A stretch of DNA of 62,987 bases, counting the filler, from Perkinsus olseni (lineage: Eukaryota): the NCBI GenBank assembly GCA_013115125.1. It is 5 parts of 5 records of this genome, joined end to end, with 100 filler letters (N's around TTAATTAATTAA, not from the genome) between each part and the next. Parts side by side here need not be neighbours in the genome. Positions count along the whole stretch, not along the records: positions 12,696 to 25,230 come from JABANN010000788.1; positions 25,331 to 37,845 come from JABANN010000789.1; positions 37,946 to 50,443 come from JABANN010000790.1; positions 50,544 to 62,987 come from JABANN010000792.1; 1 more part is not named here. One strand, written 5' to 3'. The position numbers were made by a program, and so were the translations under genes. Each line of letters opens with the position of its first letter. The stretch's first letter is position 1. The notes beneath the pieces were generated by a model. The model had not been told where the DNA came from, ran no database searches, and saw nothing but the letters and a program-made list of their open reading frames with translations. Positions 12,802 to 56,694 of the stretch are shown one piece after another.

Positions 12802-15800
12802 TCGCTAAGTTGACAGCTGATCTGAAGGCGAAGGATGCTGAATTGACGGCAGCTCGGGCGTCCGTGCAGAACGCGGAGAAGAAGATTCAGGAATTCGAAT
12901 CTAAGGTCGACCACTGAAGATTCCATTTGTTATCGGAGCGAAGTTTTTTTCAGGGTGGTTTGGCACGTAGTGATGCAGAAGCACTTCGGGAAAAGATACA
13001 TAATCTGGAGGAGGATCTGAAGCAGGCTAAGGTATGCTCGTCAGAGGTATCGGGTTCGAATCCCAGAGGCTGTACTTTTCTTCAGAGTGAAATTGACTTA
13101 GCGAACGCGAAGGCCGTGGAGGCCGGCAACGCCCTGAAGGACGCCAAGCAGGAGTACACGAGAGAGTTCATCAAGCGAGGGAAGGAGGCCGAGGCTCTGG
13201 TCGCGGCGAGGCAGGAGAGGGAGAGGGCGGTGGATGAGATGAAGAAGGATATCGAGGAGCTTGATAAGAAACTGAAGGAGAAAGATGAGGCTCATGCCGA
13301 GACCAAACGCCAGCTGAGCGCCGCGGAGGAGATGGTGAAACAGAGCGAGCAACGGATAAAGGCGTTGGGAGAAGAGAATGAGAAGTAGGGCTTGCCGAGG
13401 GAAGAGCATGTCTGTGCATGCGTGCTGCCAAATAGATACCAAACTTTGTTCACATCGGCGTCTTCGTCGTCGTCGGCTTCGCCGGCTTCTGGGAAGGAAG
13501 GAAAGGAGAGTGCGGCGACCGCTCCGTCCTCGCCGAATGAAGTTGGGAAGTTGAAGGCTCTACTGCAGCAAGTGAATGAGAGCAAGAAGCTTCTTATCGC
13601 AAGGGAACAGGAAGCGGTGAGTTTTTGAGGAATACAAGATTTGTCGAGATTGCAAGATTCTGCGTAGCTTCTCGAGTGTTCTCGTCATAAAGCGAGGTCG
13701 TTGGGTCTGGAAAAGGACCTCAATCGGCTGGAGGAGCGGTTGAGACAACAGGAGGATCACATCGAGAGAATGAGGGAGGCGGAGGAAAAGTAGGTCTTAG
13801 CGGAGCGAAGTTTCTTGTCATTTTTCGCGATGGTACAGATACTCGCTGCTGACGGCCAAGGTGCAGGAGTTGTCTATGTACGAGTCGGAGTATCAGCGGT
13901 TGAAGATGGATCGTGGTGAGAGCGCGACCTATTTTGTCGGTGCCGCGGGTCAAGCTCGAATACTCTTCAGAGACCCAGCGGCAGAACCTCCAAAAGACTC
14001 AATCTGAGCTGGATGCAGCCAAGGAAGAGAGCAGCAAGTTGAAGGCCCAGCTCAATGAGGTCAGACAATTTTCCTTAACAACGCACTATGAGAGCTTATA
14101 ATAATAATAATATCATCATCATCATCGTCACTGGTATATTGATGATAGTAGTAAGATGAGTTTTATGCGCATGTAGCGCACAGGTGTCTGAAGGGAGTTA
14201 TTTTTTGGGATTAAATGCCCGGCCAATAAATTGATCCTATGCAATGCAGCTCACCGTGGGGAGTGATAATATACAGCTATCTACCTTGTAACCCACAGGG
14301 TTAGCGACTCATTTCATATCTGGGGTTTTACTCATTTTTCGTGCTATAGCCGTGAGCGGAGGTTGAGGCTCCATGCTAGCCTACGCCATTTGCAAAGTGT
14401 AGATTGAGGTTTGTCTCTAATTATAGTACTTTCAGCGAGGGGCCGAGTATGGTGGATACTTCTACTACCGAACTAGATCGTACGGAGCGCAGTCCATCCT
14501 CCTTCAGAGTACTGAAAGGTTCCGCCATCAGAGCGCGGCGATGAAGGCGACGGCAGCAAAGGCTGAGCGGTTTGAGAAGCTGCACGCTGAGTTGACAAAG
14601 AAGTAGGGGACAATGTGTGAGTTGCATGGGTCGACCTAAGATACGTTAGATACGCTAACATGGAGCCAGCAGAGGTGGCCAAGCTGAAGGAGAATGAGGG
14701 TAAACTAAAGGCTGAGCTAGCACAAGTCCACGCGCAACTGAAAGAGAAGGTAACGAGGAGGATAATCTTCGTAGTTGAGGATAAAAAATAAGCTCATTTT
14801 TCCGCTTATTCTGGTGACTCGGAGAATTTCGAAGTCGCTGCTGGCCTGATCTCGGACGGGCGCATGGTGAAAGCGTCAGTCGAGGTGCAGCCTCCGGTAG
14901 TTGGTCAGATGAGGCGTACGGAGTCAGAATTTGTGTGGACGGGATTGGTGTCTTGCGGTTTTAGAGCGCCAAGGTGGAATCTCTGCAGAGTGCATCGAAG
15001 GCATTGCAAGCTCGGGCGGCCGAACTCGCCAATCAGGTAATGGGAGAGCGCGGTCTTATTTGTTAGTCTGCCTGCACTCGTGATGAGTGGAGGTAGAACA
15101 CGGTTTTTCTCCTCCCGGGGATTGAACCGGGGACCTCAGGACGCCCGTCTCTGTGGCTACTGCACGACGTCTGCGAGTGTGGTTGTCCTGCAGCTCGGCC
15201 ACCATAGCTAAAATTAAACTCTTGTTCATCTCGCGGCCCACCATCCGGGCCGGCTATGGGCGATTATTTGTATCGTGCAGGTCCGCACCAATGAGGCTAA
15301 CATGAACACTGTGAAGCAGGAAGCTGAGAAGAAGGCGAAGAATCTTGAAGAACAGGTTGGCCAAGGAAGATACGGTGAGTTAAGATTCCCTCGACCTCTG
15401 TCAGTTGTCGATGAAAGTGCGGTTGCTGAACCAAGAGCAGGGGATGCGCAAGCTGAGAGACAACCGCATCAAGGATCTCGGAGAGCAAATGAAGAAGATG
15501 GAGGAACAGTTGAGAGAGGAGGAGAAGAAAGTCAAGACGGCTGCGGGCGCAGCATCAGCTGCAGCAGCAGAGCAGCAACAGGCTAAGGTATGAGCCGTAA
15601 TTTTGTGGCGCGCGAGAACTTCTTGGTGTAGGCGCAGACGAGCTCGGCTACCCAAACGGCCGGAGTGGCTGTCAGCAGCGCTCAGCCGACGACGAGCCGG
15701 GTGGTGAGGGACAAGCGGAATATAGAGTTGCTCCAGGGGTCAGCTAAGATACTGCAGGTAGGGCTACATGCATTGTGCGGGGAGTATCGATTGGAGTGGT

Positions 15801-16491
15801 ATTGATTTGACTGCTCTCTACGCCGGAATACGAGCTGTTTTTTAGGAGTATCGAATTCAGCTGAGCAAGGCGTTAGTAGCATTGAAGAAGTCAGGGGAGG
15901 GGTCCCAGCCGGCTGCTGCCGCGGCGGCGATGGGCGTAGGCGCGCAAAAACGGAAGCATCCCGAGCAGGACCCAGAGGGGGGGGGAGGGACTGCTGGAGG
16001 GCCTAATAGCAAGATCAGTCGTGTGGAGAAACAGGAGCAGGCTGGAGAGAGTAACGAAAGGAGTGGTATAGAGTTGAGTGCATGTAAATACTCTCAGGTG
16101 GTGGAGTTGCATCGTCGACATCATCATCCAGCAGTGCAACAGAAGCAACAGCAGCAGCAGCAACTACAGCGCCAGGTGGGGGTCTTCGCCAGAAGGTTCC
16201 TATCGTACTTCTAGTTTTTCTGAAGAATAAATTGTTATAGGAAAACAAAATCCATCATTGTTGCAGATTACCCAGCGCGGCCCTGATGTGTTTCATCGTA
16301 TGATGACGGCTGTAACTTATGAATGCTGCTATTCCTCAAAGCCGCCAGGCGGCGGCGGCCGCCTAGCAGCAGCTCCTTGAAGTGTTGTTATTCCCTCAGA
16401 GCCAACGACCACCACCACGGATGCAGCAGAGGAAGACAAGTCAGTAGGGGAAGAGCAGCACCCGCCTCCTCCTCCTTCGACCACGGAGTAG
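12802..16491 (+). CDS. 5'-truncated multi-exon long coiled-coil protein, possibly TPR/Mlp-like nuclear basket protein
   Basis: More than 12 E/K/A/Q-rich exons; KYANMEPAEVAKLK resembles a late Mlp/TPR coiled-coil motif; low-complexity tail with NLS-like QKRKH...KISR. The gene is clear, the family call is tentative. Confidence 0.6.
15107..15211 (-). pseudogene. tRNA-derived relic in an intron
   Basis: Reverse complement has A-box-like TGGTGGCCGAGCTG and T-arm GAGGTCCCCGGTTCAATCCCCGGG; acceptor stem does not pair. Confidence 0.6.
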
Positions 16492-16621
16492 ATGACGACG
16501 ATTCGTTAATCTAGTTTCTCAACGTACGGTATCGATCTTGATTCATTACGTATTTCACTGCACCCAGGTGCTGTGTTGAGTTGACAGGCTTTCTAGTCGG
16601 TGGCGTAGTTTTTATCCCAAA

Positions 16622-17999
16622 ATGCTCCGCACTGGTGGTGGCCACACGGCAGGAGCATCCACGCCGTCCTCCTCCTCCTCGTCGCATGCCGCTCGAGGGG
16701 AAGCCTGTTTCCAGAGAATGGAGAAGTGCAATGCTGAGGTGCTGGCACTACTGTAATAAGGCTGCTGCCCCACCGTTCGCTTGCGTTGGAGAGCAACTGA
16801 CCATTGGCCCACCAACTAACTTCCTGCGGTATTCCTCACCACTAAGGAATCTACTGCCTCGTATTACCCGGATGATCAGCACGTGGAGAATTTTTGTGAA
16901 ATGCTGAAAATATTTGCAGAGGGCGAAAAACTCCTCGGGGGAATCTTTCAGCGGCTGAGTTGTTGATGAACGCTGTCGTCCGGAGCTGCATGGGCCGTGG
17001 GAAGGATTCTTGCCTCAGCTCGTGTCGCCGTCAGATACGGCGCCACGGTAAGGCAGCTGCTGGTGGATTATGATGGCAATTTCGATAAGGTGAATGGAGA
17101 GCTGTACAGGATGGGTACCGATATCGGCGCCCGCCTGCTGGACGAGTTCCTTATAAAGAGTCGAGTGCCGCCTTGTCAGGACTTCAGAGACGCCTGTGAG
17201 GTGATAAGGATGATAGATGTTCCACCCGGGGATCGAACCTGCGCCTGATGCATTTTAGGTTATGAGCAAAGTAGCACTGAAGATGTATCTTGGTGTAGCC
17301 GGAGAGTGTGTCGACTGGGACAACAGCACAGAGGGGAGGAAGTGCCGGCTGGTAGAGCGACAGCTTCGCTCCACCCTTTTTTCCTCAGCAGCATTGCACG
17401 TCCGTGCATGACACTCCTTGCAGGTGCTTCCAGTGAACCCTCTCAATGACTTTGTAGAGCTGCCCATGGACCTCAGACGCCAGCCACCGGATGCTGTCTC
17501 GCAAGGACAAAGCGGACCTATTCTGTGAGTGTCTGGTCCTCGTCGCTGTGCGGGTTTCCTTCGATCTCCCTCGTACCATAGCTAGCATTGATGTTTGGTG
17601 CCCTTCTCTTCCCACACCATCGAGGTGGGGTCTGCTGGCGGGGAGGGCGGCCTGGACATACGAACTGTCGTTGCGAAATCAACGCCCGGACCGTGGCAGT
17701 ATGAGTCGGGTCGTCTCAGGTACTACAGCAACATCCTTTGCGGTGTCATCGCGGGAGCGATGGAGCAGCTGAGGATGAACGTACTGGTTATCGGTCGGTT
17801 GTCTGAGAAGGATATGGTGGTCATGGTCAGGTTGCTGTCCAATTCGAGAGTGATGTTCTGCTAGGGGACGAGACAACAGTTATCAGCCTTGAGCTGCTTG
17901 AGGTGAGTAGTGTCGAGGCTGGGGATCGAACCCACGACCTTTCGGTTACAGATCGTGTCTGATGAGATCCGTGAAGACTCTGATAGCGATGCTGAGTAA
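16622..17999 (+). CDS. BET3: TRAPP complex subunit Bet3/TRAPPC3, multi-exon
   Basis: NAEVLALLYGATVRQLL, MGTDIGARLLDEFL, KVALKMYLG, NPLNDFVELP, YSNILCGVIAGAMEQL. Confidence 0.92.
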
Positions 18000-18089
18000 A
18001 CTGTGAAGAACCGTTTCCTGGTATTAATCGGTTTCCTCTTCTCTATGTAATGCGTTTTGCGTGGAGAGATCTCGCGACACAACCGCTGT

Positions 18090-18205
18090 GTAGGAGCCTC
18101 CTACTAGGAGGGGGACAGCATCACTATGATGTGACTAGGAATAACGGTGGGGGTGTGTAGGAGGGGACAGCATCACTATGATGTGACTAGGAATAACAGT
18201 GGGGG
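18090..18205. repeat. ~50-bp tandem duplication; first copy carries a 14-nt palindromic scar
   Basis: GGGGACAGCATCACTATGATGTGACTAGGAATAAC occurs twice. Confidence 0.9.
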
Positions 18206-18251
18206 GAGAGTCGAGAAGCTGATGGGGCATATCTAGTTGTGTTGATTCATA

Positions 18252-19400
18252 ATGGGTAATTACTTGTGGAGTCCCAAGAAGGTCGCGTCCAAGGACTACT
18301 TCGAAGAGTTCATATTCGGCCAGAATGGAGTTCATCACGTTATCAAGAGGTAGTCTGCCGTCTCAGACACTCCCCAGCTTGTCACCCATCCACCAGGTCC
18401 TTCACCATCGCTGCCAGCAAGAAGGTGGCCCCAGCAGAAGCGGAAAGCTTCAAACAGTGAGTTTCAAGCCCCCGGTCTCTCCAGGGGGTCACTGTAGCGG
18501 TGGTGCTCAGGTTTGTTGATTTGTCGGCCAAGTTCCTGTTGGTACATCATTTACAAGAGGATGAGCATATCTTTCCGTTCTACAGGAAGCATTTGAAGGA
18601 CGCTACGGCCCTGGAAGGGGAAGTAGACGAGCATGAGGAGGTAGGCGCCGCCTTGCGGGCTCGGAGTTGGCCTAGGTCTTCTATGCCGCTGCAGGTCTCG
18701 AGACTGTTGGTGGATCTAGAGGAGAACCTGAAGCAGGACAAGATCAGCGATGCGCAGAAAATCTGTGAGGATTTCTCAAGAGTGTGCGGTTGACGTGATT
18801 GCTGTCTTCGCAGGTGCTGCGATCCGTGATATGATGTGTGACAATGTGAACGGTCACCTGGTGAGAGAGGAGAAGATCCTCACGCCAGAGGCCTTCCGGG
18901 AGCATGGTATTTCGGGGCCTTCGCCTCTCCTGGGTGGTGGACGTGGCGTTTCCCTCAGCCACTGAGAAGGAGGTGCGCGATCTGTCTACTGCCATACACG
19001 GCATGATCAAGGACCACATGAACAAAATGGATAGTCTTATCTTCATGATGTAACAGCATGGGAATCAAGCTCCACCCGGAGGACCATGGTGATACTATTA
19101 GTTATAATATGAACGACGCCGAGAAGGCCTTCTTCGATGAGAGGATGCCCTGGATCATGACCTACTTGATCTTCCCTATAGCCGCCAACAAGAAGCCCGA
19201 AGTGTAAGCATCATTCGGATGCTGTAGTACTCGATACCTCCTGACAGGTTCGCTCACTGCGCTTTCCCCCGCTACTCGAGTCCAGATAGACTGGGATGGT
19301 ACGGTGAATGCCCGCCAGGTGAGAGTGGAGGTGCCCTTAAGCGTTGTTAAGGCTCCTCATGTCCTCAGTTCCTGCCGAGCTCCCCACAGACCTCCAATAA
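18252..19400 (+). CDS. Hemerythrin/HHE cation-binding domain protein, multi-exon
   Basis: HHLQEDEHIFP, DEHEE and HLVREEKIL match the HxxxE...H...HxxxEE ligand pattern. Confidence 0.8.
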
Positions 19401-19621
19401 GGTATCGTAAAGATTCCTGATCATCACGAGCAATGGTGTATACAGCACTACCTTGTTGCTACTCGATGCCCGATGGTATTCCCGTCCAGACGGCAGATAG
19501 CCCCGACCCGCAATGCGGGACACGCATCTAGCGTTACTCCAGTACTAGCAGTACCGAATAGTTGTGTTAATATCAATCTTCATTGAGGTGATCTCTTGTA
19601 ACTATATAGTTGGTGGGGGAT

Positions 19622-22600
19622 ATGTCCAGGCCAGCTGCTGCGACGGATGGTTCTCCAACGACGTCATCGCTTCGGTCTTCCTACAGCGACGATACTAGTA
19701 GCTGCTCATTCTTCTCCTCGTCGTCGTCTTCGAGCTCTTCCTCCTCGGACTCGGGTATACCTGAGTGGGGGGAAGGTGAGCCTACACACTAACACATAAT
19801 GGTGTTCACCCCTGTCCTCAGTACCGCTAGTCGTGCCCTCTCCCGCTGCTGGTAGTGACGGCCTTTGCCGAATCGGTGATTCAGAATTCTCAGGGCTGAG
19901 AGGTGACGGACACAAAATGGGATCGCTTGCGAATCCAAGCACCTCGTTGCAGGATCGTCTCGGACAACCAGTCTGCTTGCTTGGCCTGCTGCAGAAGGGA
20001 AGCTGAAGTCATCAGTGGAGCTCTCAAGCCTCAGGCTGCATCGAGGCGCCATCTCAGTGTCCAACGGCCAAAAATTGATACTGCGGGATTGCGGTATGGA
20101 TGAATGCAGAGTGGGCGTTGAGAAGCCCTTGATCTTTCAATGACCTTGGCTGTGCTCAGGTGTCCGTTGGCGACGGTGCGGAACTTGTTCTTGAGAGGTG
20201 CAAGTGGACGTCGGGCCTCCGTCCCGCTGTTCACGTGTGCTGGTCGACGGCGCCGGTGGACACTCCTCCGCGGATAGAGATCAATGACTGTCATTTCTCT
20301 GATATGCACGTAGCTGTATCACTAGAGGTGAGTCGGACCGCTCTACAGTGGAATCACTACCTTGACGAATGATTCTTTTCCCGTTTGCATCGCGAAGGGT
20401 GGAGCTCACCGTGGTACCTGCTGTCCACGACCGAAATATCCTAAATGGGCGCGTTGGAGGCATGTCTTGGGAGGGACATATATTTGTTTAACACTTTCTG
20501 TGGGCGACAGTCGCCCGTCGACTCTGTGAGAGGCTCTCACTCACAGCAATTCCCTTGAAATCGCCTATGGCCCGACCTTCCCTATGGCATGCCTCACCTC
20601 ACCCTTACCCTAGCCTCGCATCAATCATTGGGATCTAGCGTGATGCCCTGCCAGCTATCGGCCAGGTATAGACTTTCGCGATGCACTGTAGCAAGACATG
20701 GTCAGAAAGGGCCCATCAGTGGGATGCTTCGGATGCATCGCATCCTCTGACGCTCCATGGGTGACCAAGCACCAAGCTGTAGGCTGAGGACCAAGGAGAC
20801 TCCTATATTCCAGGCCGTCGATGTTTCGGCAATATACTCGGGCTCTGATGAGGATCGGAGGAGATGGGAAATTCTTACTGAGAATTTGAAGGAGATTGTC
20901 CCGTTGTTGAAGGGAGGTTGAATGTTGGTATCGAGCAAATGAAGATTGTGATTGTTTCTAGTGCTTCGGCTAGTCTCATCACTGGAGCAGCAGTGAAGGT
21001 CCCAGGTGTCGAGTCTGAAAATACGGAAGAAAGCAACTTGACGTCCTTGACAGAAGAACTTGTGTCGATATCACAGTATGCCGGCGTTTTCGTTCTCTCC
21101 CCATCTGGACGACCAATGATCACTCTTAGTAGCGCTGACGGCCGTTGAGGCAGCGCCCTCATTTAAGAACTAATTACGGTTCTTCCAGACGCCGGTGGCC
21201 CGCCCTAGTAGCTGTGGGGTTCAACTCTCCTTGGGCTTCAGCCAACTTGCTCATTCCCAAAAGGGCGGCTAAGGAAATTATTATTAGTGGCGCATGAGTC
21301 AACCGGTTCGGTTCCCCCGGTCGAGCAGACCGCTGGCTTGCCACCTCCGCAGCAGCAGCCTCAGCTGACGTTCTACCGGACGGTCAGCGTCCAGAGCTAC
21401 CGGAGCCGCCGCGTGGTTCTCACCCTCAAGAAAACGCCCAGGTCCGAGCCGGTGACCTGCCGGCGGTCGATGCTGCTAGGGCCAACGAGGCACTTGCTAA
21501 TGACGAGATCATTTTCGACTCAAAAATTTCGAGATGGCAACCCCTATCAGGGCCTCGTTCAAGGCGGAAAAGAGGTTTTGCCTGCTTTCGCCGTTTCCTT
21601 CCTGAAAGAGAAGCTGGTCGCTCAGGCGCTGGTTCCTTCCCAGCGCCCTCCAAGGAAGAGCCCGCGGAGGATTCAGGGGTAGCCGAGGCCTTGCTGAAGG
21701 AGTTCGAACGAAAGTTCAAGGTCCAAGTACCTGCCAGATTCCTTGTGTCTTCAAGGACATTCGGCGAACTCAAGGAGCATGTCCGGAAGATGAATGCGTC
21801 TACGTTGCCAACCATCGGGCTGGCCGCCAGCGGCTGGCGGCAAGCGCAAGATGAAGATAGATCTGAGCTCCGGTGAACTTGAGGTGGATGATGCCCCTGA
21901 GATGCCGCAAAGCACCACATTCCCGGCTGCCAATGAAACCTACCTGGATGGGGCTCTAAAGAGCGTCCCTCTGAGTCCTCCCAGGATCGAGTGTCTTCGG
22001 GAAGCATTGGATGGCGCTCTTCCTCCGAAGTCTCGACTCGCGGATGGAGTGTCATTATCAGTTGGAGAAGCTCCGTCTGTTCTGGAGGGGACTGCTGTCA
22101 GAGTGGAGAACTTGGGTCTTTCCGAATTTCCTCGTCTTGTCGTTTCGGGTCGCAGACAGGTGTGGCCGTTTGCCCAAGGGTTATGAATCGGACAATGTTC
22201 AGAAAGAGTTCGAGAGAAATGTGCTCGCGTGTATTTGTCATCACTTTTTCTCTTATCAGAATGGGATGGAGATCAGCACTCTCTGCATGTTTCAGTTAGA
22301 AGCCTTCCCCTCCACTGACGGGGTGCAACAGCGCACTATACCGCCAGATTCTGTCCCAACCGTTGGACTGCATCACTGCACTTTCACGGACATACGCGGA
22401 GCAGCGATCGTTGTAGCCGTACACATCCGATCTCCACTAGTAACGTTATACCGCTACTACGCAGCTTATCCTTGTTTCTCTCAGGCTGCTGACCAAACCG
22501 ATTCTTCTGATAAGGACTCCGTCTACCATTTCAACTTGAGTACTCTGATGGTAGCTGACGAGTCTTCCCTCTCCTATGAGAGATGTCCCGCTCGATTCGA

Positions 22601-23477
22601 GGTTTCCTTTGGAGGATCGAAATTGCTACGACCGTTCAGGTGAGGGACAGCTCTGTGCTCGGCTGCAGGCAGTGCTTACCCCATAGACTTCTCGTTATTC
22701 TACAGTTTCTCGTCGTGGCCCCCTCCCTCCGGCGAGTATCTCACACCACGTCGGGGATCATCAGGACGAGGGGCACAGCAAGTGAAGGTGGGTTTAGCCA
22801 CTCCTCATGCGCACTTAGGAGTTCTCATCAGGCGGTGGTATCAGCAGATCGCTCGCGGTTAGAGATTGTATGCCCTCCAGTTGCGTTCTCCTCGGGACGA
22901 AAGAGGGCAGGCAGGAAGGCGTCGTCGTCACAAGTCTCGGTTTGGATGGAGACGCTCGGATTGAGCGATGAAGGTGTGAATGGGTTACAATGAGTGCGGT
23001 CGTAGCGACGCTTCAGCAGAGCAAGCCGTCTAGGATCGGTGAGGGTCCTCCTACTGCCGCTAATGATACGTAAAAAATCATTCGGAGGGGATTCGATTGC
23101 GTTGATTGAGGTTCGCTCGTGTCGAGCTGTCCCTGCAGCATAAGAGATAAGCTATCAATGCTAGATATTCATTTCCTCGGACACTAATCGGGCGAATTCC
23201 TGCTGTGAAGCCGTGGCCCGTGGCTGTTGGTTCAACCGGGTGATGTGGTTCAGATATCAACGCTCTATCACGCGAGGCCATCATGTCAGCATTTCGGAAG
23301 CGCAGCTTGTCGGTCCACCCCGATAAGCGAGGGGCGTCGGCATCCCCGGGAAGCACTCCAGCCGCTGACAACAGCAGCCCAGAAGATTTCATTAGCCTTG
23401 TAGAAGCGAGAGATGGATTACTCCAGTGTTTGGCAAGTCGGCGTGATACCGCGAAACGTAGCAGGCGGCGGAGGTAG
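19622..23477 (+). CDS. Multi-exon protein with beta-helix-like repeats and a C-terminal J-domain
   Basis: Last exon AFRKRSLSVHPDKR...FISLVEARDGL (HPD motif); internal exons IEINDCHFSD and GLHHCTFTD; ~2-kb intron ~20328-22297. Exon chain approximate. Confidence 0.65.
20720..21880 (+). mobile_element. Decayed LTR-retrotransposon-like fragments (protease-like and gag-like) inside an intron
   Basis: CPVVEGRLNVGIEQMKIVIVSSASASLIT resembles retropepsin (hhDSGASxSLI with D and G lost); YQGLVQGGKEVLPAF resembles retrotransposon gag; stops and frameshifts present. Confidence 0.5.
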
Positions 23478-23676
23478 TAGTAGTAACGATGTTTCTTCCG
23501 TTTGAAGCCTTGTGTTTCTCAGTAGGAGAACGAGAGTCGTTCTTTGGGGCGATGCCGAGATAAATGGGAAACTATAAGTCACATTAGAGGGAGGTGACAG
23601 TCGGGGTGGAGTATGCAGGGGTAAAAAGTGTTCGATGCTTCCGGCACTTCCGGCAGCGGTAAGCGAAAATAGTTCC

Positions 23677-31131: not shown

Positions 31132-31164
<33 letters not shown>

Positions 31165-37945: not shown

Positions 37946-38018
<73 letters not shown>
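37946..38018. repeat. (AAT)n microsatellite at contig start
   Basis: Pure AAT run. Confidence 0.97.
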
Positions 38019-45165: not shown

Positions 45166-45500
45166 CTATGATATTGGTGGGGAAGATCTGTAGACCTGGC
45201 CTGTCGCATCGTCATCAGATGAGGCAGATTCTGCCTGCCTCACTTTTCTGTTTAGCGAATATTGGCTAAGTAGTGACACCCGATTCAACCAATCGGAGAA
45301 AGCGTCTTCTTTCGGGCATAAAACCGTGGCCGCGGGGGACTGGGAGGAGGTGGATCCGAAGCCCGAACAGTGCAGTGCGCACTGTGCAGCAGGGTGCCAC
45401 TCATGAGGCATCTCGAAGCCGCCGAGAGCCGTGCCAAACGGCTTGCCCCAGACAGGGGCGGCGGCTCAGGTGCCAGAACGGTGACAGCCACTGCGAGTTG
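45166..45500 (-). mobile_element. Decayed gag-like zinc-knuckle relic
   Basis: With a 1-nt frameshift reads RCLMSG-HPAAQCALHCSGFGS, resembling BEL/Pao gag CCHC knuckles. Confidence 0.4.
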
Positions 45501-46358: not shown

Positions 46359-47884
46359 ATGAAGCCACTGTCCTCCGGACCAGTCTACCGTCGCCAACCC
46401 TCTGCGACCTTCACACGAGCAATGATTTACATCTTTTTCGTGGCCGTCAGCTCCACGGTACTTCTACCGCTGTGCTTTTTCACTTGGTGGGAGTCTCAAC
46501 CGTCGCCAATCTTTCCTGCTCCGAAGCAAAAGCCACATCTTCATCAGTGCTCATCGAAAGACGATCAGATCGATTGGGAATTTTTTCTCACTTCTGGAGA
46601 CTTCTTTCGCTATGCAATCGCTCAGAATCGGCCTTCCCCCTTGAAAGTGGCGGAGAGCGAAAAGCATCTATGCTCACCACCGAAGGACGTTAGCCCGACT
46701 TGGAGTGACTGTCTGCCTATTAATCCGAGTACAGACCCGGAGAGGTGCCTCCTGGCTATGAGAACGGAGCTGCTGAAAACGAGTCCAGAGTTCGTTGGGA
46801 AGGTCTGCATGTCTGCTTTATTGGATATGATATTGATCGATGTTGATGAAGTTATGCGAGAGCTCGGGTGTCGTCCTCTGCTTACTTTCGGGACGGCACT
46901 GGGAGCGTCTCGGAATGGCACGCATATTCCCCATACAGACGACGTTGACTTAGCGTGAGTTGAAGGGAAGGCGGAGGGTGGCTCGGGATTCCCGAGTCGG
47001 GAAAATGAGAAATCTGAGAATTGTAAATTTTTCGTTTGGCTCAGGTAACGTAGTCGAGTCGAGAATTCATCCATTTACAAAATTCACAAATTTTCACATT
47101 CACAGAAACTGATATCAGTAATAATCTGGTATAGCGTACCCGAACGGCACCAATTATGAGGGCAGCTCGAAATTGAACAGCCGTGCAGAGGAGGCACTCC
47201 CGCCTGGCCACCGCGCAAGGTTTCACAGGATTAGACTCTCGCAGTATTCGGCACATGAAAGAATTGACTAGCTGGTGATGGCCGTGTATGGCTATTGTAT
47301 GCGGGAGAAATTTGGTATGAGAAGTCGGGCAACTCTACATTCCCTCGTATGAATATCACATAACGTAGTTGAGCTTCTTCTTCGACCGTTTCGTGGATCA
47401 AGGACATTGAAGACGTAGCGTACTGATGGCCAGTCATAGGTACGTAAAAGAGGACGATGAAGATTGTTTGGGCAGTCGCTTCACGGAGCTGTTAAAGAGC
47501 CGCGGACTCTACACGTTCAAGGATGAGCTCATACGAGTTTGCATCGCTCCTTTTCACCCACTGGCGTCCAACTTGTACGACATCCACCACCCACAGCCAT
47601 GTGGCCCCGAGCGATCGTGCGGGTATGTGGACGTCTATCCACTCGTACCGTACACCGGCAACAAGCCGTACCATCGAGAAGGGAAATTGTATCGGCATGC
47701 GCCCTACGACGGGTACCGAATGAGCGAAGAACAGATATGGCCCCTTCGAAGCGTCTCGATAAATGGCAGGAAATTCGAAACGTTCGCTGACGTGGAAGAT
47801 CTGCTCGAGAGAAGTTACGGAAAGGATTTCCTGCATCCGAAAGGAGATGATGAGTATCTTCGCGACCTCGGTATTCTCGTATGA
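46359..47884 (+). CDS. LicD/fukutin-family nucleotidyltransferase-fold type II membrane protein, 2 exons (intron ~46955-47439)
   Basis: N-terminal TM segment; FGTALGASRNGTHIPHTDDVDLA; YVDVY; IWPLRSVSINGRKF; LLERSYGKDF. Confidence 0.88.
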
Positions 47885-49678
47885 TGTTCAAGAGCTGAAC
47901 TATGATTCAGCAGCACCTTTTTTCAAGTCATCCCGATTTCAATCGTTCTTCGCTGCCGACCAGCTTGTTGTATGCATACTGGAGTGACCGTTCTGTGGTA
48001 CGGTAATGTCCATTCGTATTACTGTTAAGTTCACTTACTAATGGGGGGGTACTCTCACACCAAGTGAGAGAGAGCGCGGGATCACTGTGGAAATTGAAGT
48101 TGGGCGGCAGAAAAAATTCTGAAGGCTAGTGACTAGCCGCTAGTGCCCTGGATAAGAAGGGAGAGCAGCTAACAAAGAGGTTTTCGGCAAAACATACACC
48201 AGTCGAAAGCCCCACAAATTTCTGATCTGATGGGCCGGTTTCGGTCCAACATTCGCAATCGAGTCTCAAGTTCTCTCAGTCTCTCAAATCTTGAGAGTCT
48301 CAAGTTGAAACTCGAGTCTCGAGTTTAACTACCGAGCCGTGATCTGAGATTTCCTCGCTATCAGTTCACTGCAACACGGTGACTGCCTAATTGTGGCGGC
48401 GGCTAACGAACGACTGTACGATGAACAACAGACGACGTATGAGGATATATTCAGACTCCTGCTGCACGGAATTTCAGCTACTCTAACACGTCAAACACAG
48501 CTCCCTCTTCAAACTGTAGGGTGGAATGATTCCACGATCCCACTGGAATCGGTTACTAGCGAAACTAGTGGCCCGCAAATCTCACGCACACCCTTGTCTC
48601 CCAACTTCGTGCAATGCGAACAATATACTCCTGGGCTGGCTTTTCCGCCCTCCGTCCCTGGGCGGGAACTGTCGACAACAGTATGCAGTCCATGGGTCTC
48701 TGACTCTTAAGCTCGTCGTTAGCTCGCATTAGTCTCCAAGTTATGTATCAGAGAGAGTGCCCTAAGTAAAGATTATGTCTTCAGACTTCCCATTAAGCTC
48801 CTCGATTGTATTCTCCTAGCTTTGTGTTAACGGATGACAGAGCTGTCCCCGCCTCGACGTCACGCCAAAGCAAATTCCTTTGAATGTTGAAATTCCCATT
48901 GCTGAAAATTTATGTAAGAAGTAAGAAGTCTCTCAATGGGATAGAATCGCACCAGGAATCCTGCGGGTAGAAGAAGCACGGTGTTAGGGTGGACAATAGG
49001 GCGGAGGCTCTGTACCCTTACTCATAGAACGTCACTAGTCACACACCACAGTGACATTACTGATGAGGAATTCGTTTTAAGATACTTGGCCATATACAGC
49101 CACAGACAGGCTCCCACAGCACCAGTGGAAGGAAGGGACGAAACGATGGATGCATATCTGAAAGCTATCCTGAGGATAGTATCCTCCCGCCGGAGTTCAG
49201 CGGAGGTGAACTAATTTCGCGAGTTCTGCGAGTGTCGCGATGTGACAGTCAACGGTTCAGGAGCAGGCAGCCGGTGTCGCGGAGGAGGCAACCAGTGTCC
49301 CGCAAGGGACAGCCGGTGTCCCGTCGAAGCGAGCGAGCGCGAACGCGTGCTTAGCGCCGCCAGGCTAGCGAGTGCTGCGCATGCGTGCACAGCGCTATTT
49401 AAATGAATCACAATTCTTACTTTTCTCTTACTAGCAAGTTCGTGGCGGTCTGTGAGTCGATATTGAGACTCGCGACGGCTCATCCTTGATTTAGGGTCTA
49501 TTGAGCATCTCGACATTCTATTACGGTGGCTGCAACTAGGCTCTTGTGGTCCACAGCATTCTTTACGCCCATATTCTTAGCTTCTTCCGGGGCATAACGA
49601 AACCGGTATGCTTCATCTGCTCTTGAGCGCTGCTTAATTCTCAGAAGCTCATTTTCATACAGCTACTTTACGCTGTCA

Positions 49679-50401
49679 ATGGTAAAACCCGTCGCAACTT
49701 GGTTCATCACCGCCGCTCTCTTCCTGGTAAATACGAGTGCTCAGTTCATTGGAGAATACTCACTGTCTACGGCGTCCCACAGAGTACGAGCTCTTGTGGC
49801 GTCTCGTTCCCTAACCCTCACTTTCGAGCCGCTTGTCGGGGATAACAAATCGGTCACTGCTCGTGCCCTTCGCCTCAATGAAGGTGCTGATGCTTATACT
49901 GTTGTCTATCGGAACTTTGAAACATTCAAGGAATTCATTAACTCTCGAGGCTCATCCATTCAGGATGGTGACTTGACCGATCTGTATCAGCGCAACGCGC
50001 TGTCTATCAAGACTGTACTCGAAGTGCAAGAGGTAACATTTTTCAGAAAAGCTCTACTTCTGATCCCGGGTAAATACCTTTTTGCATTTACCGGCTTCTT
50101 CTTGGTCTTGGATATTACAACTAGCGTGAAAATGAACATCCAATGCGAAAGTGTCGATGGCGATACGCGTCGTTTCGAACGCGAATTCCGTGAGTTAGTC
50201 GACGCTGGGGCAACCAATATTAAGTACGCCGGAGGTACAAACTACATTAATTTCATTGGCGAAGTGGCGAAAACCTGTTCGAGCATCGGTATGCCGGCGG
50301 ATTCTACCTTCTTTTATGTATTCTCAGCTACGGATAGATTTGTCTACCTGGGACTGGGTGGGAGAGGAGATGTTGCGCGAACTATTGTCTTCGTTGGTTG
50401 A
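49679..50401 (+). CDS. Single-exon secreted protein of unknown function (240 aa, apparently two related modules)
   Basis: Signal peptide ending NTSA-Q; modules start IGEY and PGKY, like LPRGNY in 11422-11856. Confidence 0.75.
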   Translation: MVKPVATWFITAALFLVNTSAQFIGEYSLSTASHRVRALVASRSLTLTFEPLVGDNKSVTARALRLNEGADAYTVVYRNFETFKEFINSRGSSIQDGDLTDLYQRNALSIKTVLEVQEVTFFRKALLLIPGKYLFAFTGFFLVLDITTSVKMNIQCESVDGDTRRFEREFRELVDAGATNIKYAGGTNYINFIGEVAKTCSSIGMPADSTFFYVFSATDRFVYLGLGGRGDVARTIVFVG

Positions 50402-50443
50402 TGATAGTCGGGCGTGCGCGCAATACTTAAGCTTATCTTTACG

Positions 50444-50543
50444 NNNNNNNNNNNNNNNNNNNNNNNNNNNNNNNNNNNNNNNNNNNNTTAATTAATTAAN
50501 NNNNNNNNNNNNNNNNNNNNNNNNNNNNNNNNNNNNNNNNNNN
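50444..50543. other. Artificial contig-joining spacer
   Basis: N44-TTAATTAATTAA-N44. Confidence 0.98.
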
Positions 50544-51007
50544 TCAAACACGTAGTATGTGCTGAATTAGACTGATTTTTGTGATTTGCATATCGAATTG
50601 GAACACCCTGTATTTTTCAGCACGTCTGTGTTATTGTTACAGGGCGTAGTCACCGTTATGTAGTTGCTGGCGGTTACGCGAATATTTAAAGCGTGTTAGA
50701 CGCAGAACCTCGTAGTGGGCTAACTCGATTCCCGGTGATTGTAGAATAATAGTCAAGCCCAACCTTTGGGGTTGGTTTGTCCAGCACGTACCGTGATGGT
50801 TTGAAGTAACCAAATGACAGGAGAGTGATGCAATGACATGGGTAACGGACGCGACCGATACCAGTGGCCAATGGTCTGATGATCTAAAAAATATATAGAT
50901 ATCAACTGCGGTCGTTACCCTCTCTGCACACTCGGACGTTCGATACGAACTGCATCTGTTCGCTCCAATGCGTGGCAGGAGTTGGAAGGCCCGGTGATCC
51001 CCATCAG

Positions 51008-51929
51008 ATTCTGGCTCCAGGCCTGCGTCTCGGTTGGTTCCACACTCACCCTGATAACATCGCCAAGATCATGCCGAGCGGCGTTTTATGTGAGTCGGAG
51101 CGTTTGATATCGGAGCTGATCGATTGGTGCCAGTGAGCGGTGGCGGACCTCCTCCGGTTTTGGTGGAAGCGGTAACGACTCTGATGAAAGACGGGCATTT
51201 GAGGGAATATTTGGTAGTGTCGGGCCCGGGGATCGAACCTGTGCACTTCTTATCTGCTCCTTGTAGGATGAGCTGAGGCGGATCTATGCATCTCGACTGG
51301 GGGCAATGGTCACTTCGTTGAAAGAGGAGATGTCCGATTTTGCAACGTTTCATGAGCCGAGCGGCGGATACTTCCTCTGGCTGAAGTTCAAAAAGTAATG
51401 TGGGACGTCTGAGGACCGGAATCACGAATGGATACAAATTTTACGAAAAACGGTTTCGGACATACCGCATGGAATACAAGTAATTAAGGAGGGGCTATGG
51501 TCAAAATTTCCGGTGAAAACTAGAAATAGATTGAAACTTTTCTCTGCGAACGAAATACCGGTCTTCGGATGTCCGGTACTTAGTCGCAGCGGTAGAGCAC
51601 TTTGTTACGCATGCTAAGGCGTGGGTTCGATTCCTTACCATGACTCTATGGGACTGAGTCACATCTCCCTCAGATTACCAGCTGGTAAGGACACTACCCA
51701 ATTTCTCGAGTTCTGCCGTGACAAGGGAGTTGGCTTCTTACCAGGTGAATTTGCCATTCCCTTGACTGTCCTCTTATCGTACCGCCCAACCTCAGGCATC
51801 CGTACGTCAGTCGACAGCAGTTCTGGCGGGGACTGCATTCGACTTTCGTTCGCCTTCTACACCGAGTCCGAGATCCAGAGTGGAATTCGAAAATTGGCCG
51901 CAGCGTGGAGGCAATTTTGTGGCGCGTGA
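51008..51929 (+). CDS. 3' exons of a class I/II PLP-dependent aminotransferase (ARO8/MocR-like), 5'-truncated
   Basis: ILAPGLRLGW, EPSGGYFLWL, GVGFLPG, CIRLSFA. Confidence 0.88.
51581..51647 (+). pseudogene. Near full-length tRNA-like relic (Ala-like) in an intron
   Basis: TAGTCGCAGCGGTAGAGCAC (A box) ... GTGGGTTCGATTCC (B box); stems degraded. Confidence 0.65.
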
Positions 51930-54020
51930 CTTTTCCTTAATTTTCTGGGGTCATTTTCTGGGGCTCTAACACTCGAGTTCATTCTCCTTTTCGGAGTTTC
52001 GTATCCGTTCGAGAGAGAATATTGAGCTCAGGGTGGTATCAATTTCGTGGCGCGCGGTCATTCTCTGCAGTTAGCAGCTCCCGTCATGGTGCCGTCGTTA
52101 GCTGCAGATTGTCGCCAGTGTCTTGACTGGCGCCTGCACGACCACACGTTGTTCCCTCGAATTCACGCAGCAGTAGAGGGCTGCCGGGCGGAAGCTCAGG
52201 TAGTGGGGATACGGATGTCGACTCCGGTCCACTCTTCGATCAGGGGATTCGTTAGGGTAGCCGACAGTTTTGTAGTGCTCCCTTGTATTGATTATTTTAC
52301 GCTCGCCCGGTACTCGTTGGTAATTTGCCCCGGTGCCTCTACTATGGTGCTATAACATCATATTCTTCGACGCGCTGGTGGACGAGGATCGCGAACGGCG
52401 AAGGCGATCAGATCTATCTGAGAGTTACCAGCTACTTCGACCACCTCTGGGGGAGCACAGCCGGGTAACAGCGAGTTGAGCTCGCCGTCGGCTGGTCGCC
52501 GAGGCCGGGTCGGATGTAGTTATCGAGCGGGATTGGAAGCTCGTTGAGTCGCAATGCCAGAGATGCGGAGTGTATCGCTGTTGTGGGAAGGGCTGCGAGA
52601 CGGTATGCTCCCGCGATCCGACCGCGGCGGTCGGCACAGCTCGGCTTTTGACGCCAACGAATCGTTGGCGAGTCAGCACTCAACGGCAGCTTCTAGTCGA
52701 TCATCGTTGGCAACGATATGCTGTGATAGTGAGCTAGCTTCTGATTGCTGTTAGATTCCCACAACAGAGGAACGACGTTGAATGCGGCGGCGTCTTCATC
52801 ATCTACTAGGCCGAGTCATTGACGGTGGGAGATACTAGATACTTTCGGTGGTGCGCGTAAGATTTTCCGTGATGCTAAGCAAAGCTTCGAGGCATTTATG
52901 GCCGAAGCCTTCGGCCATGGCAATCGCCGTGGCCCTGATGCGAGGTGGGTATGATGCGAACGGTGCTTGCTGGTTGCTTCTTGCTAATCTAGCAACGCTA
53001 CACAGCGGGTATTACAGACGATTCTTTGCCCTGGACGTAGTATGTAGTAAGTAGTAAGTAGTCGTAGTTGATGTAGTAAGTTACTACAGGGTTGTATTTT
53101 ATCGCAAAGGAGGGTTTGGCGCGCACATCGCTGTGCCTGCATGTTTGCCACCGCCCGGAAGCATTGAGCATCTTCATGGGGAGTCGAAGATAGCGATAAT
53201 TGAGCTTTGTGCTGAGTTGAGGTATGCAAAGTCGCTTCTAGCAGTGGTAGTAGCGAAGCCGGGGTAAGACCGCAGAAAAAACTGTCGAGAACGCTCGGCA
53301 CCTCTACGGTGAACACTAGTCAGGCAGATGCTGCAGTCTAGTTATGTGCCGGATGCCGAGATGCTCTGAAAATTTTCCGTATTTTGAATTTTGTCTACTT
53401 TTTTCTCGCCTGAATATTAGGTAGTCGCATGTTCTTCCGATGTTAGAATCATCGCCTGCACGATGCCTCATGGTTGGCCATGCGGAAAATCGGCCACCAT
53501 TGGTCTCGGCACACCTCGACAGTCGCGATGAATCATGATGGAGGTCACAAGGCAGCGGACTTCATACGAGGTTGCATAGCCAGGTAGTATCAATCTACTT
53601 ATTCGTACGACTCCCGAAGTTGAGGGTTGAAAGCCAATTTTGCATTCGCTTGGGCCGACCAAGCGAATGATCCAAGTTGGGCTATTTTTTGCCAAGTGAA
53701 GAATCAGAAAATGACTTCTTGAAGCGGTCCGGGAAACCCGGATGCTTTCTACGACGAGCTGGGCTCATCGACTGGCAATATTGGCCAGGTAGCCAGTATC
53801 ATAGCAGTAGCCGGTATTAAGCTGGCAATACCAACTTAATCAGCTTGATCACAAACGCGGTACGTGACGTCGGATCTTGTCCTCATAGGACATAGATGCC
53901 ACCTTCGGCCCTTCGGAGTCCTATTCTTGAGTGTGCTGAGAATTCGTCTCTCAGGCACCTGCGTCATACCATTGTCCGCCCCTGCGCTGAACACTGTCAC
54001 TTGAAGATGCTGTGAGAAGT

Positions 54021-54092
54021 GGCATTACCTTGGATTGAACCTGGGACCTTTCGATGTGCAGTATGAGCGCATGGCCTTGTTGAGCATTTTCC
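54021..54092 (-). pseudogene. tRNA-like relic (Cys-like, CT-GCA loop) upstream of pinin
   Basis: Reverse complement ...ACTGCACATCGAAAGGTCCCAGGTTCAATCC...; acceptor stem broken. Confidence 0.6.
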
Positions 54093-54209
54093 ACATGAAT
54101 AATGCACTCTTTCGTTGAGGGGTTTTTGCGACTACTGGATTTTATCAGCCGCATCAATTGCTGTTGGTTGTAATACCGAGGCGGACCCCCTCGCACTACA
54201 ACAGAAGTG

Positions 54210-56694
54210 ATGTCAACTTCGACGGCTAATAAACCAGTGGCGCCTCGTGGTGGCCGCAAAGATGCCTTCTCCTCGACCTCCCCAGTGAGAGGTAAGGGGG
54301 ACAGTAAGGAGAAGGGAGGAGGAGATGAGCACGCCTTGAATAAGGAGATGGATAAACTGATGGAAGAGCAGTAAGCGGAAGGCCCCCGGATCGAATCCCA
54401 CGAGGGGCATTTGTATTTTCTATAGTGCCCGCATTCAAGAACGGTTGGCTGAGACGAAGCCGCCACCTGTCGATTCGAACGAGGTTGGAGGGATCGTGGA
54501 TTACGATCAAGATGATGACGGAGCAGGAGGAGATTCTGGGGAACCCACAGCAGGTGATTATCGTGAAAGATAATTTCGTGGCGCGCGACGGTTTTCGACG
54601 TGATCAGATGGTCGGGCTGGTAGACAGCAGTCTCAACCTCGGCAATCTGAGGAATTAACAGAAGAGCAGCGAGAGAAGGAGGCGAAAGCGAGGTTCATCA
54701 AGAGCGAGCTCGGAGGCTTTTCGGAGGCTAGTCCGCAGGTGGGTGACGCTCAGGCTTCTCATAAGTGCTCAAGTATCCCGGGTACCGTACCCCGCTTCGG
54801 ATTCGAGCTGGATCTTATTCTCCCTTACAAAACACTTCATTTCGATACGGCAAGTGCTAGTGTGGAGTGCGTGTAGAATTTCTCGGCAGCAGTTTATTCG
54901 CAAATAACGGCTGACGTATTTCTTCTCTCATGGTGTGACAAAGTTCGGCTCTCGCGGGTGGTGGGAGTCTGGGTCAGCTTTTTAATAGGGGAACAACTGA
55001 ATGCTTTGGCCATTCTTGTTCATCCTGGCCATTCCAAAGACTTTTCTACTAGCGGCGGGAATCGCACATCATCACAAGGCGCCTGTTGACACTCTCTGGT
55101 GCCATACCCGTCGTAGTACTTCGTCAGTCTGAACGGGTTTCTGTGGTTGATCCTAGATTAGTCCTGTCTCAGATACGAGAGAGCATGAAGAGGAATAGGA
55201 GGATGTTCGGTAATCTCCTTGGGCATCTCGGCAGTGCTAAGCAGAGGCTCGAGAAGGACAGAAAGAGAGATGCGGCTCAACGTGAGAGAAAGCAATTTCG
55301 TGGCGCGCGGTCATTGGACGTGAATTGGTCAGGCCAGGAGGAGTGTGCTCAGAGGGTCGAGGCAAAGCTTGCGAGGCAGCGCAACAATCTGAGAGAAATC
55401 AGACGTCTCGAATGGGAGGAGAGGAGGAAGCAAGATCGCGAACGGCTGGTACGATGGTGGGAGGGCGTACCCGAGGTTGACCCTTGACATGTAACCACTC
55501 AGGAGCAAGTCTTGAAGGAGATGGAAGCTAAAAAGATCGAGTTGCTAAAGATACGCTTGCAGTCACACTACAAGTAATGTGACGGGAGTCGATTCTCTGT
55601 CCCCATTGTCTTATCCCCCTCGGCGTCAGGCAAATGACGGGGTTCATTCGCACCAACGCTCAGCCTTCGGTGTTCTACTTGCCGAAGCATCACAACTCGG
55701 AAAGCAAGGAGCTGTTGGAACAGACGAAACAACAGGTGGTGAATGGATGGTCTTTAGTTTCATGGGCGTATCTTTTTTTTGTTTAGATCGAGCAGAAGAT
55801 CGCGTCAATTCCGTACAGTTTCGCAGAGTTCGGGGAGCCCACTGTAGCGTCTGCAGGAGATGTCGAAGAAGAGAAAGAGGCAGCAGGTAAGGAAGTAGAA
55901 AAGGAAACGGAGAAAGCAGTTGAGGAAACTCAAGAGAGCCCAAGAAAGCAAGTGGATGAGGATATGCGAGAATCCAGCGAGCCCAGTAGAAGTGATAGGA
56001 AACGATCTCGAGGTGAGAATCCCACCGTGAGATCCTCGCTCCTGTACGGAGGTGCAGAGTTTTTCGTTTCTTTCCGCGTGCTTGGGGACTGAGGACGAAG
56101 ATTTCAACAAGAATTTTCTTTTTTTGGCGACGTTTTGGCTGCTCCTAGAAACTGCGATATCATCGGGGAGATACTAGCAGTTTTTGCATATTAGGCGAGA
56201 CGGATGGGAATAGCATGTAACATACTGTACTTACTGTATGTTCACGTTCAGTCCGTGGTAGACCATTTTTATCGTGTATTTTACTATTCTTCTCCTCCTC
56301 AGATTACTCGGGTTCTCCGGAACGATCGAGGTCTCGTCGTCGAAGCCGCTCTCGGTCGAATACCCGCAGGAGATCTTCTCCGTCACGCAGAAGATCTCGG
56401 AGGTCCTCTCGTGATGAGCAGGATGCGTCTGAGAGGCACCGCCGTAGGGCGTCACCATCACGCTCGAGGTCAGCCGGCCGGTCGAGAAGGAGGCGTAGAT
56501 CTTCGGCCTCAAGAGAAAGGAGGTAAGATCTTATTCAGTGGCCTGTTTGAAATTACTCTCTGGCTGGGAGTATCCGACTACGCCAGGAATATCTTTCTCG
56601 CTCGGAAGAAAGTCTTTCCACGTTTCACAGTACTGAGAGTCTTTCTTGGACTCAAGAATAGTCTTTGGTGCCCCTTCATAGGTCCTATCGTTGA
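54210..56694 (+). CDS. PNN: Pinin/SDK/MemA-domain splicing-associated protein with RS-rich tail, multi-exon
   Basis: KRNRRMFGNLLGHLGSAK; FIRTNAQPSVFYLP-type segment; Arg/Ser-rich last exons. Confidence 0.85.

Follow-up and report, generated by a model that had tools for sequence, protein, structure and literature searches.

Several short spliceosomal introns of Perkinsus hold pieces of transfer RNA (tRNA) genes. The window examined here, meaning the whole stretch of DNA that was analyzed, spans 62,987 bases in five Perkinsus pieces of about 12.5 kilobases (kb) each (1-12595, 12696-25230, 25331-37845, 37946-50443 and 50544-62987), and it is dense in GT-AG introns of ~50 nucleotides (nt). Real spliceosomal introns in this window contain tRNA-derived T-arm pieces, including the B-box, far above background. 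Ten such relics were found, at a density of ~1 per 6 kb of window, and none of the ten is a working tRNA. The explanation favored here, with a confidence slightly better than even, is that the relics derive from amplified tRNA genes, as copies that settled in non-coding DNA, decayed there and were trimmed to intron size. The evidence base for the whole study is these 62 kb.

The excess of B-boxes is evident by two counts. The pattern GGTTCGAWTCC, with at most one mismatch, occurs at 8 sites compared with 2.02 +/- 1.22 in shuffled sequence, and 0 of 100 shuffles reach 8. The exact pattern GGTTCRANYCC occurs at 6 sites compared with 0.48 expected, or with 0.33 in a separate null of 60 dinucleotide shuffles, each piece being shuffled separately, where the maximum was 2. 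All six exact sites (at 13053, 15118, 17229, 17922, 51229 and 51624) are intronic, and four of them lie in introns of 49-58 nt. Within piece 12696-25230, exact B-boxes are present in 3 of 37 catalogued short introns, which total 1,949 nt and would be expected to hold ~0.01-0.015. An earlier note on this DNA, which had proposed that tRNA pieces are captured in introns, allowed that B-boxes might prove no more frequent there than in the background; six exact sites, all intronic, where 0.33-0.48 are expected, are inconsistent with that outcome. Sites with one mismatch to GGTTCRANYCC (9 versus 11.4 expected) or two (112 versus 138) show no overall excess.

The set of sites is tRNA-derived and consists of more than a bare motif. 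An AGG like that of the tRNA variable loop precedes the 11-mer by 7 or 8 nt at 5 of the 6 exact B-boxes, compared with a null rate of 2.9% (P=1.2e-7), and at 7 of 9 sites when three one-mismatch sites from the earlier note are added. The same check revealed an extra relic on the minus strand, at 6214-6258. That GC-balanced introns resemble tRNAs by chance is scarcely credible as an explanation. Although no single piece is significant by covariance models, neither the 100 nor the 60 shuffles ever reach the observed count, and the AGG signature is independent of it; at the level of the set, these two results rule chance out. The A-box pattern is at background, with 6 sites in the window versus 5.48 expected and none at any relic, so 5' halves of tRNAs are not seen. 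The A-box is the weaker motif, and ascertainment might contribute to its absence.

Five relics reside in short introns, three in longer introns, two outside predicted genes and none in exons. Relative to their host genes, three intronic relics are sense and five are antisense; over all relics the antisense count is 6, or 7 if the minus-strand relic at 264, outside genes, is included, and the sense count is 3. The four longer relics listed by the earlier note (264, 15107, 51581 and 54021) are all present, and the relic at 6214-6258 adds a fifth. The ten are as follows.

13032-13085, plus strand: 54-nt GT-AG intron of a coiled-coil protein gene, with a sense relic and an exact B-box at 13053-13063.
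17201-17258, plus strand: 58-nt intron of a TRAPP/Bet3-like gene, with an antisense relic, an exact B-box at 17229-17239 and the AGG signature.
17903-17951, plus strand: 49-nt intron of the same TRAPP/Bet3-like gene, with an antisense relic and an exact B-box at 17922-17932.
51214-51266, plus strand: 53-nt intron of an aminotransferase-like gene, supported by frame evidence, with an antisense relic and an exact B-box at 51229-51239.
54371-54425, plus strand: 55-nt predicted intron of a pinin/SDK-like gene, with a sense relic, a one-mismatch B-box (GGATCGAATCC) at 54388-54398 and the AGG signature.
6214-6258, minus strand (relic 6228): an IPP-2-like gene has a predicted 120-nt intron (6141-6260), whose 3' end holds this antisense relic, with a one-mismatch B-box at 6228-6238.
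15104-15148, minus strand (relic 15107): antisense relic with an exact B-box at 15118-15128, within an intron of 244 nt predicted at 15037-15280.
51604-51648, plus strand (relic 51581): sense relic in a ~280-nt intron (~51396-51677) with exon frames on both sides and an exact B-box at 51624-51634.
262-306, minus strand (relic 264): relic outside predicted genes, with a one-mismatch B-box at 276-286.
54017-54061, minus strand (relic 54021): relic upstream of the pinin-like gene, ~150 nt from its predicted start, with a one-mismatch B-box at 54031-54041.

An AT-rich zone (25331-37845 and part of 37946-44000, at 36-45% GC compared with ~50% elsewhere) has long trinucleotide repeats, few predicted genes and zero tRNA relics.

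The earlier note claimed eight short introns with tRNA-like bodies, and GT and AG are present at the ends of all eight. The strength of support for these introns differs. RNA contigs from four RNA-type runs were aligned to piece 12696-25230, from which all RNA support derives, and show introns removed by normal splicing; 15 of 43 GT..AG joints are listed. Joints for 17201-17258, 17903-17951, 18457-18510 and 19050-19101 were recovered in all four runs, with one contig per run. For 13032-13085, all four runs have RNA exon pieces starting at 13084, in keeping with an intron, and no joint is among the 15 of 43 that are listed. Excision of 51214-51266 yields a single open frame, in which HLREYL is followed directly by DELRRIYASRL. 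The introns 54371-54425 and 55574-55629 are predictions of a home-made splice-aware gene finder (intron cost 6), which recovers 13-14 of the 15 RNA-confirmed introns; it is insensitive outside piece 12696-25230 and missed the gene hosting the 51214 intron.

The claim about the intron bodies holds for five of the eight: 13032, 17201, 17903 and 51214, which have an exact B-box, and 54371, which has one mismatch. It does not hold for 18457, 19050 and 55574, none of which matches either of two covariance models at an expectation value (E) of 10 or less. One of these models, R1, was built from 28 phage and archaeal-virus tRNAs and represents two arms only (10 base pairs), and the other was trained on the ten relics; both were searched against the window. 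The intron at 18457 has a single one-mismatch B-box without the AGG signature, and such sites are at background.

Several general features of the introns and their host genes were recorded. The catalogued short introns (n=47) are 38-75 nt in length, mostly 44-58. Of 64 catalogued introns, 29 have the acceptor TCAG, the commonest. Motifs resembling a branch point are weak, and the GC content of introns is about equal to that of exons. Between 16753 and 19821, the downstream exon begins with GT in 9 of 15 RNA-confirmed introns. Pfam searches with single exons of host genes identified TRAPP (5.6e-7, from exon 17036-17200 beside the 17201 intron), pinin/SDK (Pinin_SDK_memA, 1.6e-6, from exon 55158-55448 of the gene hosting 54371) and, weakly, hemerythrin (0.026), in addition to the coiled-coil protein. 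The match of the 51214 host gene to Asp_aminotransf is weak (E=0.22), and exon 6262-6438, downstream of the 6228 relic, matches IPP-2 at E=0.0056, under the family cut-off. A 43-nt tandem duplication (18111-18153 and 18163-18205, 98% identical) separates the TRAPP-like and hemerythrin-like genes. An RNA contig of run X10 has 9 unplaced letters, CTTGGCTCA, immediately before 18235. These letters resemble the Perkinsus spliced leader at its 3' end, so the hemerythrin-like gene may be trans-spliced there.

The 17903 relic provides the clearest view of tRNA ancestry. Its reverse complement is tRNA-like from the anticodon loop to the 3' end, over ~40 of 49 nt. A BLAST search against phage records, which carry bacterial-type tRNAs only, matched 558 records with this sequence, and the 20 rows listed include tRNAs as well as rows without tRNA annotation. 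Among the matches listed are tRNA-Thr (query 2-48, 76.6%), tRNA-Lys (32 nt, 90.6%, E=2e-3), tRNA-His and more tRNA-Thr. Exact matches to a 21-mer from this relic were found in metagenome stretches, at least 110 in number; of these 110, ARAGORN identifies 46 as tRNAs (38 Met-CAT, 3 Val, 2 Ala, 1 Arg, 1 Lys and 1 His); many of the remaining stretches resemble tRNA-derived repeats.

The other relics are less easily traced. Similarity to annotated tRNA genes over ~45 nt was found for 17903 alone in the phage records, with weak T-arm matches for 15107 (6 records, of which 3 align to T-arms of tRNA-Ile/Val, at E=3-10) and none for seven others. The searches with 13032 (3 records), 51214 (19), 54371 (2), 51604-51648 (2) and 54017-54061 (3) gave no tRNA, the single record matched by 17201 is not a tRNA, and neither of the two matched by 6214-6258 is annotated. 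A control stretch, 18511-19049, matched 5 phage records and no tRNA. The 13032 relic nonetheless displays the expected order of parts, with the variable loop AGGTA, the B-box, a decayed acceptor strand and then a T-rich tail to the intron acceptor; its T-arm matches R1 at E=0.18, and the AGG signature is present. A T-rich tail also follows the B-box in 54371. The AGG signature is absent from 51214 and from 262-306. Searches with a 156-amino-acid (aa) read-through open reading frame (ORF) across intron 13032 gave no match, and a 247-aa antisense ORF across 54021 and 54371 had no match among protein representatives.

The relics are remnants and not functional genes. ARAGORN detected 0 working tRNA genes in the window, and relaxed settings gave 9 calls compared with 3-8 in five shuffles, so that the window is not separable from shuffled sequence. 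One such call, made at 85%, is a tRNA-His at c[265,329] overlapping the 262-306 relic, at a threshold no better than shuffles. The Rfam model RF00005 had no match at E<=10 across the whole window, nor in the 1.2-kb interval 16900-18100, which includes two of the best introns. The best window match to R1 has E=0.18, and each relic is individually weak.

Within these 62 kb, the pieces behave as relics of several tRNAs, judging from their flanking sequences, as the earlier note had maintained when it distinguished them from a single short interspersed nuclear element (SINE) consensus. Outside the B-box, pairs of relics agree on average at 8.0 of 19 positions (maximum 14), while different reference tRNAs agree at 6.3 of 19 (maximum 15); the relics are thus no more alike than different tRNAs are. 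The anticodon-loop regions also differ by eye (CTGAAG in 6228, CTGCACA in 54021 and CTGTAA in 17903). Descent of all the pieces from one ordinary tRNA-derived SINE family, inserted at random, would account for certain close pairs: an identical 17-mer is shared by 17201 and 51214, and from donor to B-box inclusive, 17903 and 51214 are the same at 23 of 26 positions. Similarly, the 21-mer of 17903 is also found in SINE-like repeats on metagenome contigs of other organisms. However, the five longer relics have no shared, tRNA-unrelated body downstream of the tRNA-like part, a self-BLAST of the window revealed no repeated intron family, and the ten-relic model detected no eleventh copy in the window, the next match scoring 12 bits (E=0.24). 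Together with the flank comparison, these results make a single SINE family very improbable, and the prospect raised by the earlier note that all fragments might collapse into one is not borne out in the window.

A related Perkinsus offers a comparison for one of the introns. In the relative's assembly, the entry P0004 has a 103-aa unspliced ORF that has 40 of 46 residues in common with the TRAPP exon and continues through the orthologous intron, which implies a 55-nt intron at the same position as 17201. The read-through peptide includes SPGIEPAP, which is compatible with the antisense B-box of 17201 plus its flank, PGIEP being compatible with the B-box itself. Overall, compatibility with the 17201 intron extends to 44 of the 58 columns aligned, a figure that is an upper bound owing to codon degeneracy. 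The relic thus seems, from this indirect alignment, to be present in the orthologous intron, and both intron and relic seem older than the split of the two lineages. The suggestion that such intron positions might be lineage-specific fails in this sole comparison, since the intron is present in the relative. Conservation in P0004 is similar for the exon that follows and for the first part of the subsequent intron, which is not tRNA-like (28 of 38 residues, in a shifted frame). Because this neighboring intron is about equally conserved, the conservation of the B-box in 17201 is not special and provides no evidence of selection.

This comparison bears on the notion that the B-boxes are retained as putative DNA-level sites for TFIIIC only, scattered in either orientation across genes transcribed by RNA polymerase II (Pol II). 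Isolated B-boxes without an A-box, away from working tRNA genes, characterize the extra-TFIIIC (ETC) sites of yeasts and mammals, which are defined by TFIIIC occupancy. The Perkinsus relics, known from sequence alone, similarly present a B-box without an A-box, apart from any working tRNA gene. Unlike ETC sites, they keep remnants of the variable loop and acceptor that mark them as relics of tRNA genes. Retention for binding would fit the confinement of the excess to perfect matches, the presence of relics in both orientations, the persistence of perfect B-boxes in partly broken T-stems, and the compatibility of the 17201 B-box with the relative's peptide. Against this, 4 of the 9 one-mismatch sites are themselves relics, such that a divergence of ~10-13%, as estimated from the AGG positions, suffices without selection, and the neighboring non-tRNA intron is about as well conserved as the relic. 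Retained TFIIIC sites are therefore considered quite unlikely.

The favored account, in which the relics are decayed passenger copies, requires no function. Copies of tRNA genes, either whole pseudogenes or fragments, would have been spread either by capture in the course of DNA repair or by retroposition of transcripts of RNA polymerase III (Pol III), and would persist, decaying, in the introns and intergenic DNA of the Perkinsus genome. An abundant source of copies is suggested by P. marinus, in which the near-identical genes of five tRNA types number 9, 46, 116, 23 and 349 (Kojima and Jurka, PMC3706591). Insertions would survive only where they are harmless, hence their occurrence in introns and between genes. 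As introns are held to ~50 nt, only ~40 nt of a copy would remain in a short intron, and the recognizable remnant would be the variable loop and T-arm with its B-box because this is the most conserved and most searchable part. The relic would be transcribed and then spliced out with its intron.

The fuller relics lie in longer non-coding stretches, as decay from whole copies might predict. Relics 15107 (15107-15173, E=0.3) and 51581 (51587-51646, E=0.7) align end to end to R1, albeit weakly, and the latter match belongs to a near full-length tRNA pseudogene at ~51560-51650, of which 51604-51648 is the 3' part. These alignments fit a series from whole copy to stub, in which the long relic-bearing introns might represent earlier stages of the short ones. 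In addition, the T-stems of the relics are partly broken, a sign of decay.

Certain observations weigh against passenger copies. The relic fills ~40 of the 49 nt (~80%) of the 17903 intron and most of the interior of the other short introns, so the passenger model needs near-complete loss of the old interior with both splice sites kept. The tRNA similarity of 17903 extends to 1-3 nt from the acceptor AG, as it does in 6228 by eye only, and the spacing from B-box to acceptor is 19 nt in both 17201 and 17903. Moreover, A-boxes are not enriched, as noted above. A clear match to an annotated tRNA was obtained for 1 of the 9 relics searched by BLAST, namely 17903, and the tRNA origin of the other eight is drawn from the B-box and AGG signature. 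Finally, 62 kb is a narrow basis, and the intron catalogue is poor outside piece 12696-25230.

Some of these observations would be better accommodated if a piece of a tRNA gene, or of complementary DNA (cDNA) from a pre-tRNA, running approximately from the anticodon loop to the 3' end, had been captured at a break in a gene and had become the body of a ~50-nt intron. The anticodon loop of an antisense copy would then supply the acceptor AG, and the T-rich tail of a sense copy would supply the pyrimidine tract. Consistent with this scheme, relics occupy most of five short introns, and the reverse-complement alignment of 17903 to real tRNAs starts at query 2-4, beside the acceptor. Relic 6228 adjoins its acceptor as well, and the next exon there encodes a conserved IPP-2 motif. 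T-runs ending in the acceptor follow both sense relics, and a 9-mer, GTAGTGTCG, that forms or adjoins the donor is common to 17903 and 51214. The lack of A-box enrichment is also in keeping with capture of 3' portions.

Other evidence argues that capture is rather unlikely. No target-site duplications were seen at the five relic-bearing short introns, similar relics also occur in three longer introns and two intergenic stretches, and the tRNA-like part of 51214 ends ~24 nt before the acceptor. Introns of ~50 nt combined with detection by the B-box would in any case leave relic ends no more than ~15 nt from a splice site. Intron 17201 and its relic seem to exist already in the related lineage, so no gain event is seen there, and the reading of this intron's acceptor as an anticodon loop depends on the length assumed for the variable loop. 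The T-runs that follow the two sense relics may be no more than pyrimidine tracts; no T-run terminators were seen by eye after antisense or intergenic relics. A rule that the acceptor AG always corresponds to tRNA positions 32-33 was considered and found inexact, given that 17903 has positions 33-34 without indels and 6228 needs a 2-nt indel. Of the proposal in the earlier note that tRNA pieces are captured as, or into, introns, the presence of pieces inside introns above background is upheld, whereas the implied gain of introns is not supported, with no duplications seen, relics present elsewhere and the 17201 intron shared with the relative.

The tRNA content of ~80% in a 49-nt intron whose two splice sites are intact, and the extension of the relic to the acceptor in 17903, and apparently in 6228, are poorly explained by the passenger account and keep the capture idea alive. 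In a concrete version of that idea, filler DNA used in repairing a break may have made the replacement in one step. Filler DNA or organelle DNA captured at repaired breaks is a source of introns in other settings, and the resemblance is that a short foreign fragment becomes intron sequence; here the source would be nuclear tRNA genes. The broader form of the proposal, that 3' portions of Perkinsus tRNA genes or pre-tRNAs are recurrent material for creating or overwriting ~50-nt introns and donate the acceptor AG or the pyrimidine tract, is doubtful and somewhat less probable still. If true, it would constitute an 'introner' route that begins with Pol III gene fragments and not with transposons, and at ~1 relic per 6 kb, thousands of introns would be affected.

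Intronic tRNA pseudogenes and relics of tRNA-derived SINEs are common in animals and plants, and the Perkinsus relics share with them a Pol III-type B-box sequence in either orientation that is non-functional and is spliced out with the intron. They differ from the usual cases in that the host introns are only 49-58 nt and the relic makes up most of the intron. They also differ from SINE relics in having no visible SINE body, tail or target duplication, and in having flanks that resemble several tRNAs. No report of tRNA fragments in Perkinsus introns was found in the literature, as covered by full text with supplements aside.

The origin of new introns and the turnover of intron sequence is a long-standing question, and perkinsids are neighbors of dinoflagellates, in which introner invasions are known. 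If several per cent of minimal introns derived from tRNA debris, a datable marker of intron turnover or gain would become available, and such a genome would naturally test whether isolated B-boxes are tolerated or used in Pol II genes. Even if the relics are mere passengers, they carry a warning for annotation, since intronic relics would inflate B-box scans and tRNA-pseudogene counts in Perkinsus.

Introners form families of near-identical copies whose terminal repeats or duplications supply splice sites, and they occur in Micromonas, Aureococcus and dinoflagellates. They are described in the Amoebophrya genome paper (PMC7789003) and in a review of transposon-derived introns (PMC11282704). 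Compared with introners, the Perkinsus introns are alike in having bodies of inserted DNA, in intron-rich protists that include relatives of Perkinsus. They are unlike them in that no repeated intron family, terminal repeats or further model matches were found in the window, and no duplications at the five introns. The parts consulted of PMC7789003 and PMC11282704 make no mention of tRNA-derived introners. The Dada transposons of P. marinus (PMC3706591) are 4.7-11 kb elements that insert at the A-box (TAGCTC) of intact tRNA genes. The parallels are the same genus, numerous tRNA genes and mobile elements that interact with them. In contrast to A-box insertion by Dada, the relics in the window are centered on the B-box, and nothing Dada-like is found in their flanks.

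The composite nature of the window is apparent from its joints, and microsatellites occupy several of the piece ends, with (TTC)n at 12462-12595 and (AAT)n found at 37946-38018.

12596-12695, 25231-25330, 37846-37945 and 50444-50543: composite spacers, each 44 N, TTAATTAATTAA and 44 N.

A 352-aa ORF at 45900-46958 is, across 51% of its length, 93% identical to a protein of Perkinsus olseni, and it has 55% identity to a P. chesapeaki protein; the DNA is therefore that of a Perkinsus, a genus of alveolates parasitic in bivalves. A Blastocystis origin was considered and ruled out, TGTTTGTT occurring at 1 site in the window compared with 2.15 expected.

A variety of other sequence features were noted. 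Three to four tandem units of ~138 nt at 3294-3786 have features of C/D-box small nucleolar RNAs (snoRNAs; TGATGA ... CTGA) and weak Rfam matches to snosnR61 (28.3 bits, E=3.3) and SNORD11B, and this region is probably a snoRNA gene cluster. A pair of inverted repeats ~600 nt apart (3874-3962 and 4476-4564; 89 nt, 89% identical), with a third copy at 39139-39210, resembles the termini of a small DNA transposon or miniature inverted-repeat transposable element (MITE). A near-perfect 74-nt hairpin, formed by an inverted repeat at 9922-9996, scores 50 bits on both strands with the mir-5595 model, for which the family cut-off is 100. The most GC-rich part of the window (56%) contains, at 949-1890, an unbroken 313-aa frame with domains of bacterial solute-binding type (SBP_bac_1, 5.8e-8; SBP_bac_6, 8.8e-7), a candidate for horizontal transfer or contaminating sequence. 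Lastly, an exact 23-nt repeat occurs at 52040-52062 and 55293-55315, both within piece 50544-62987.

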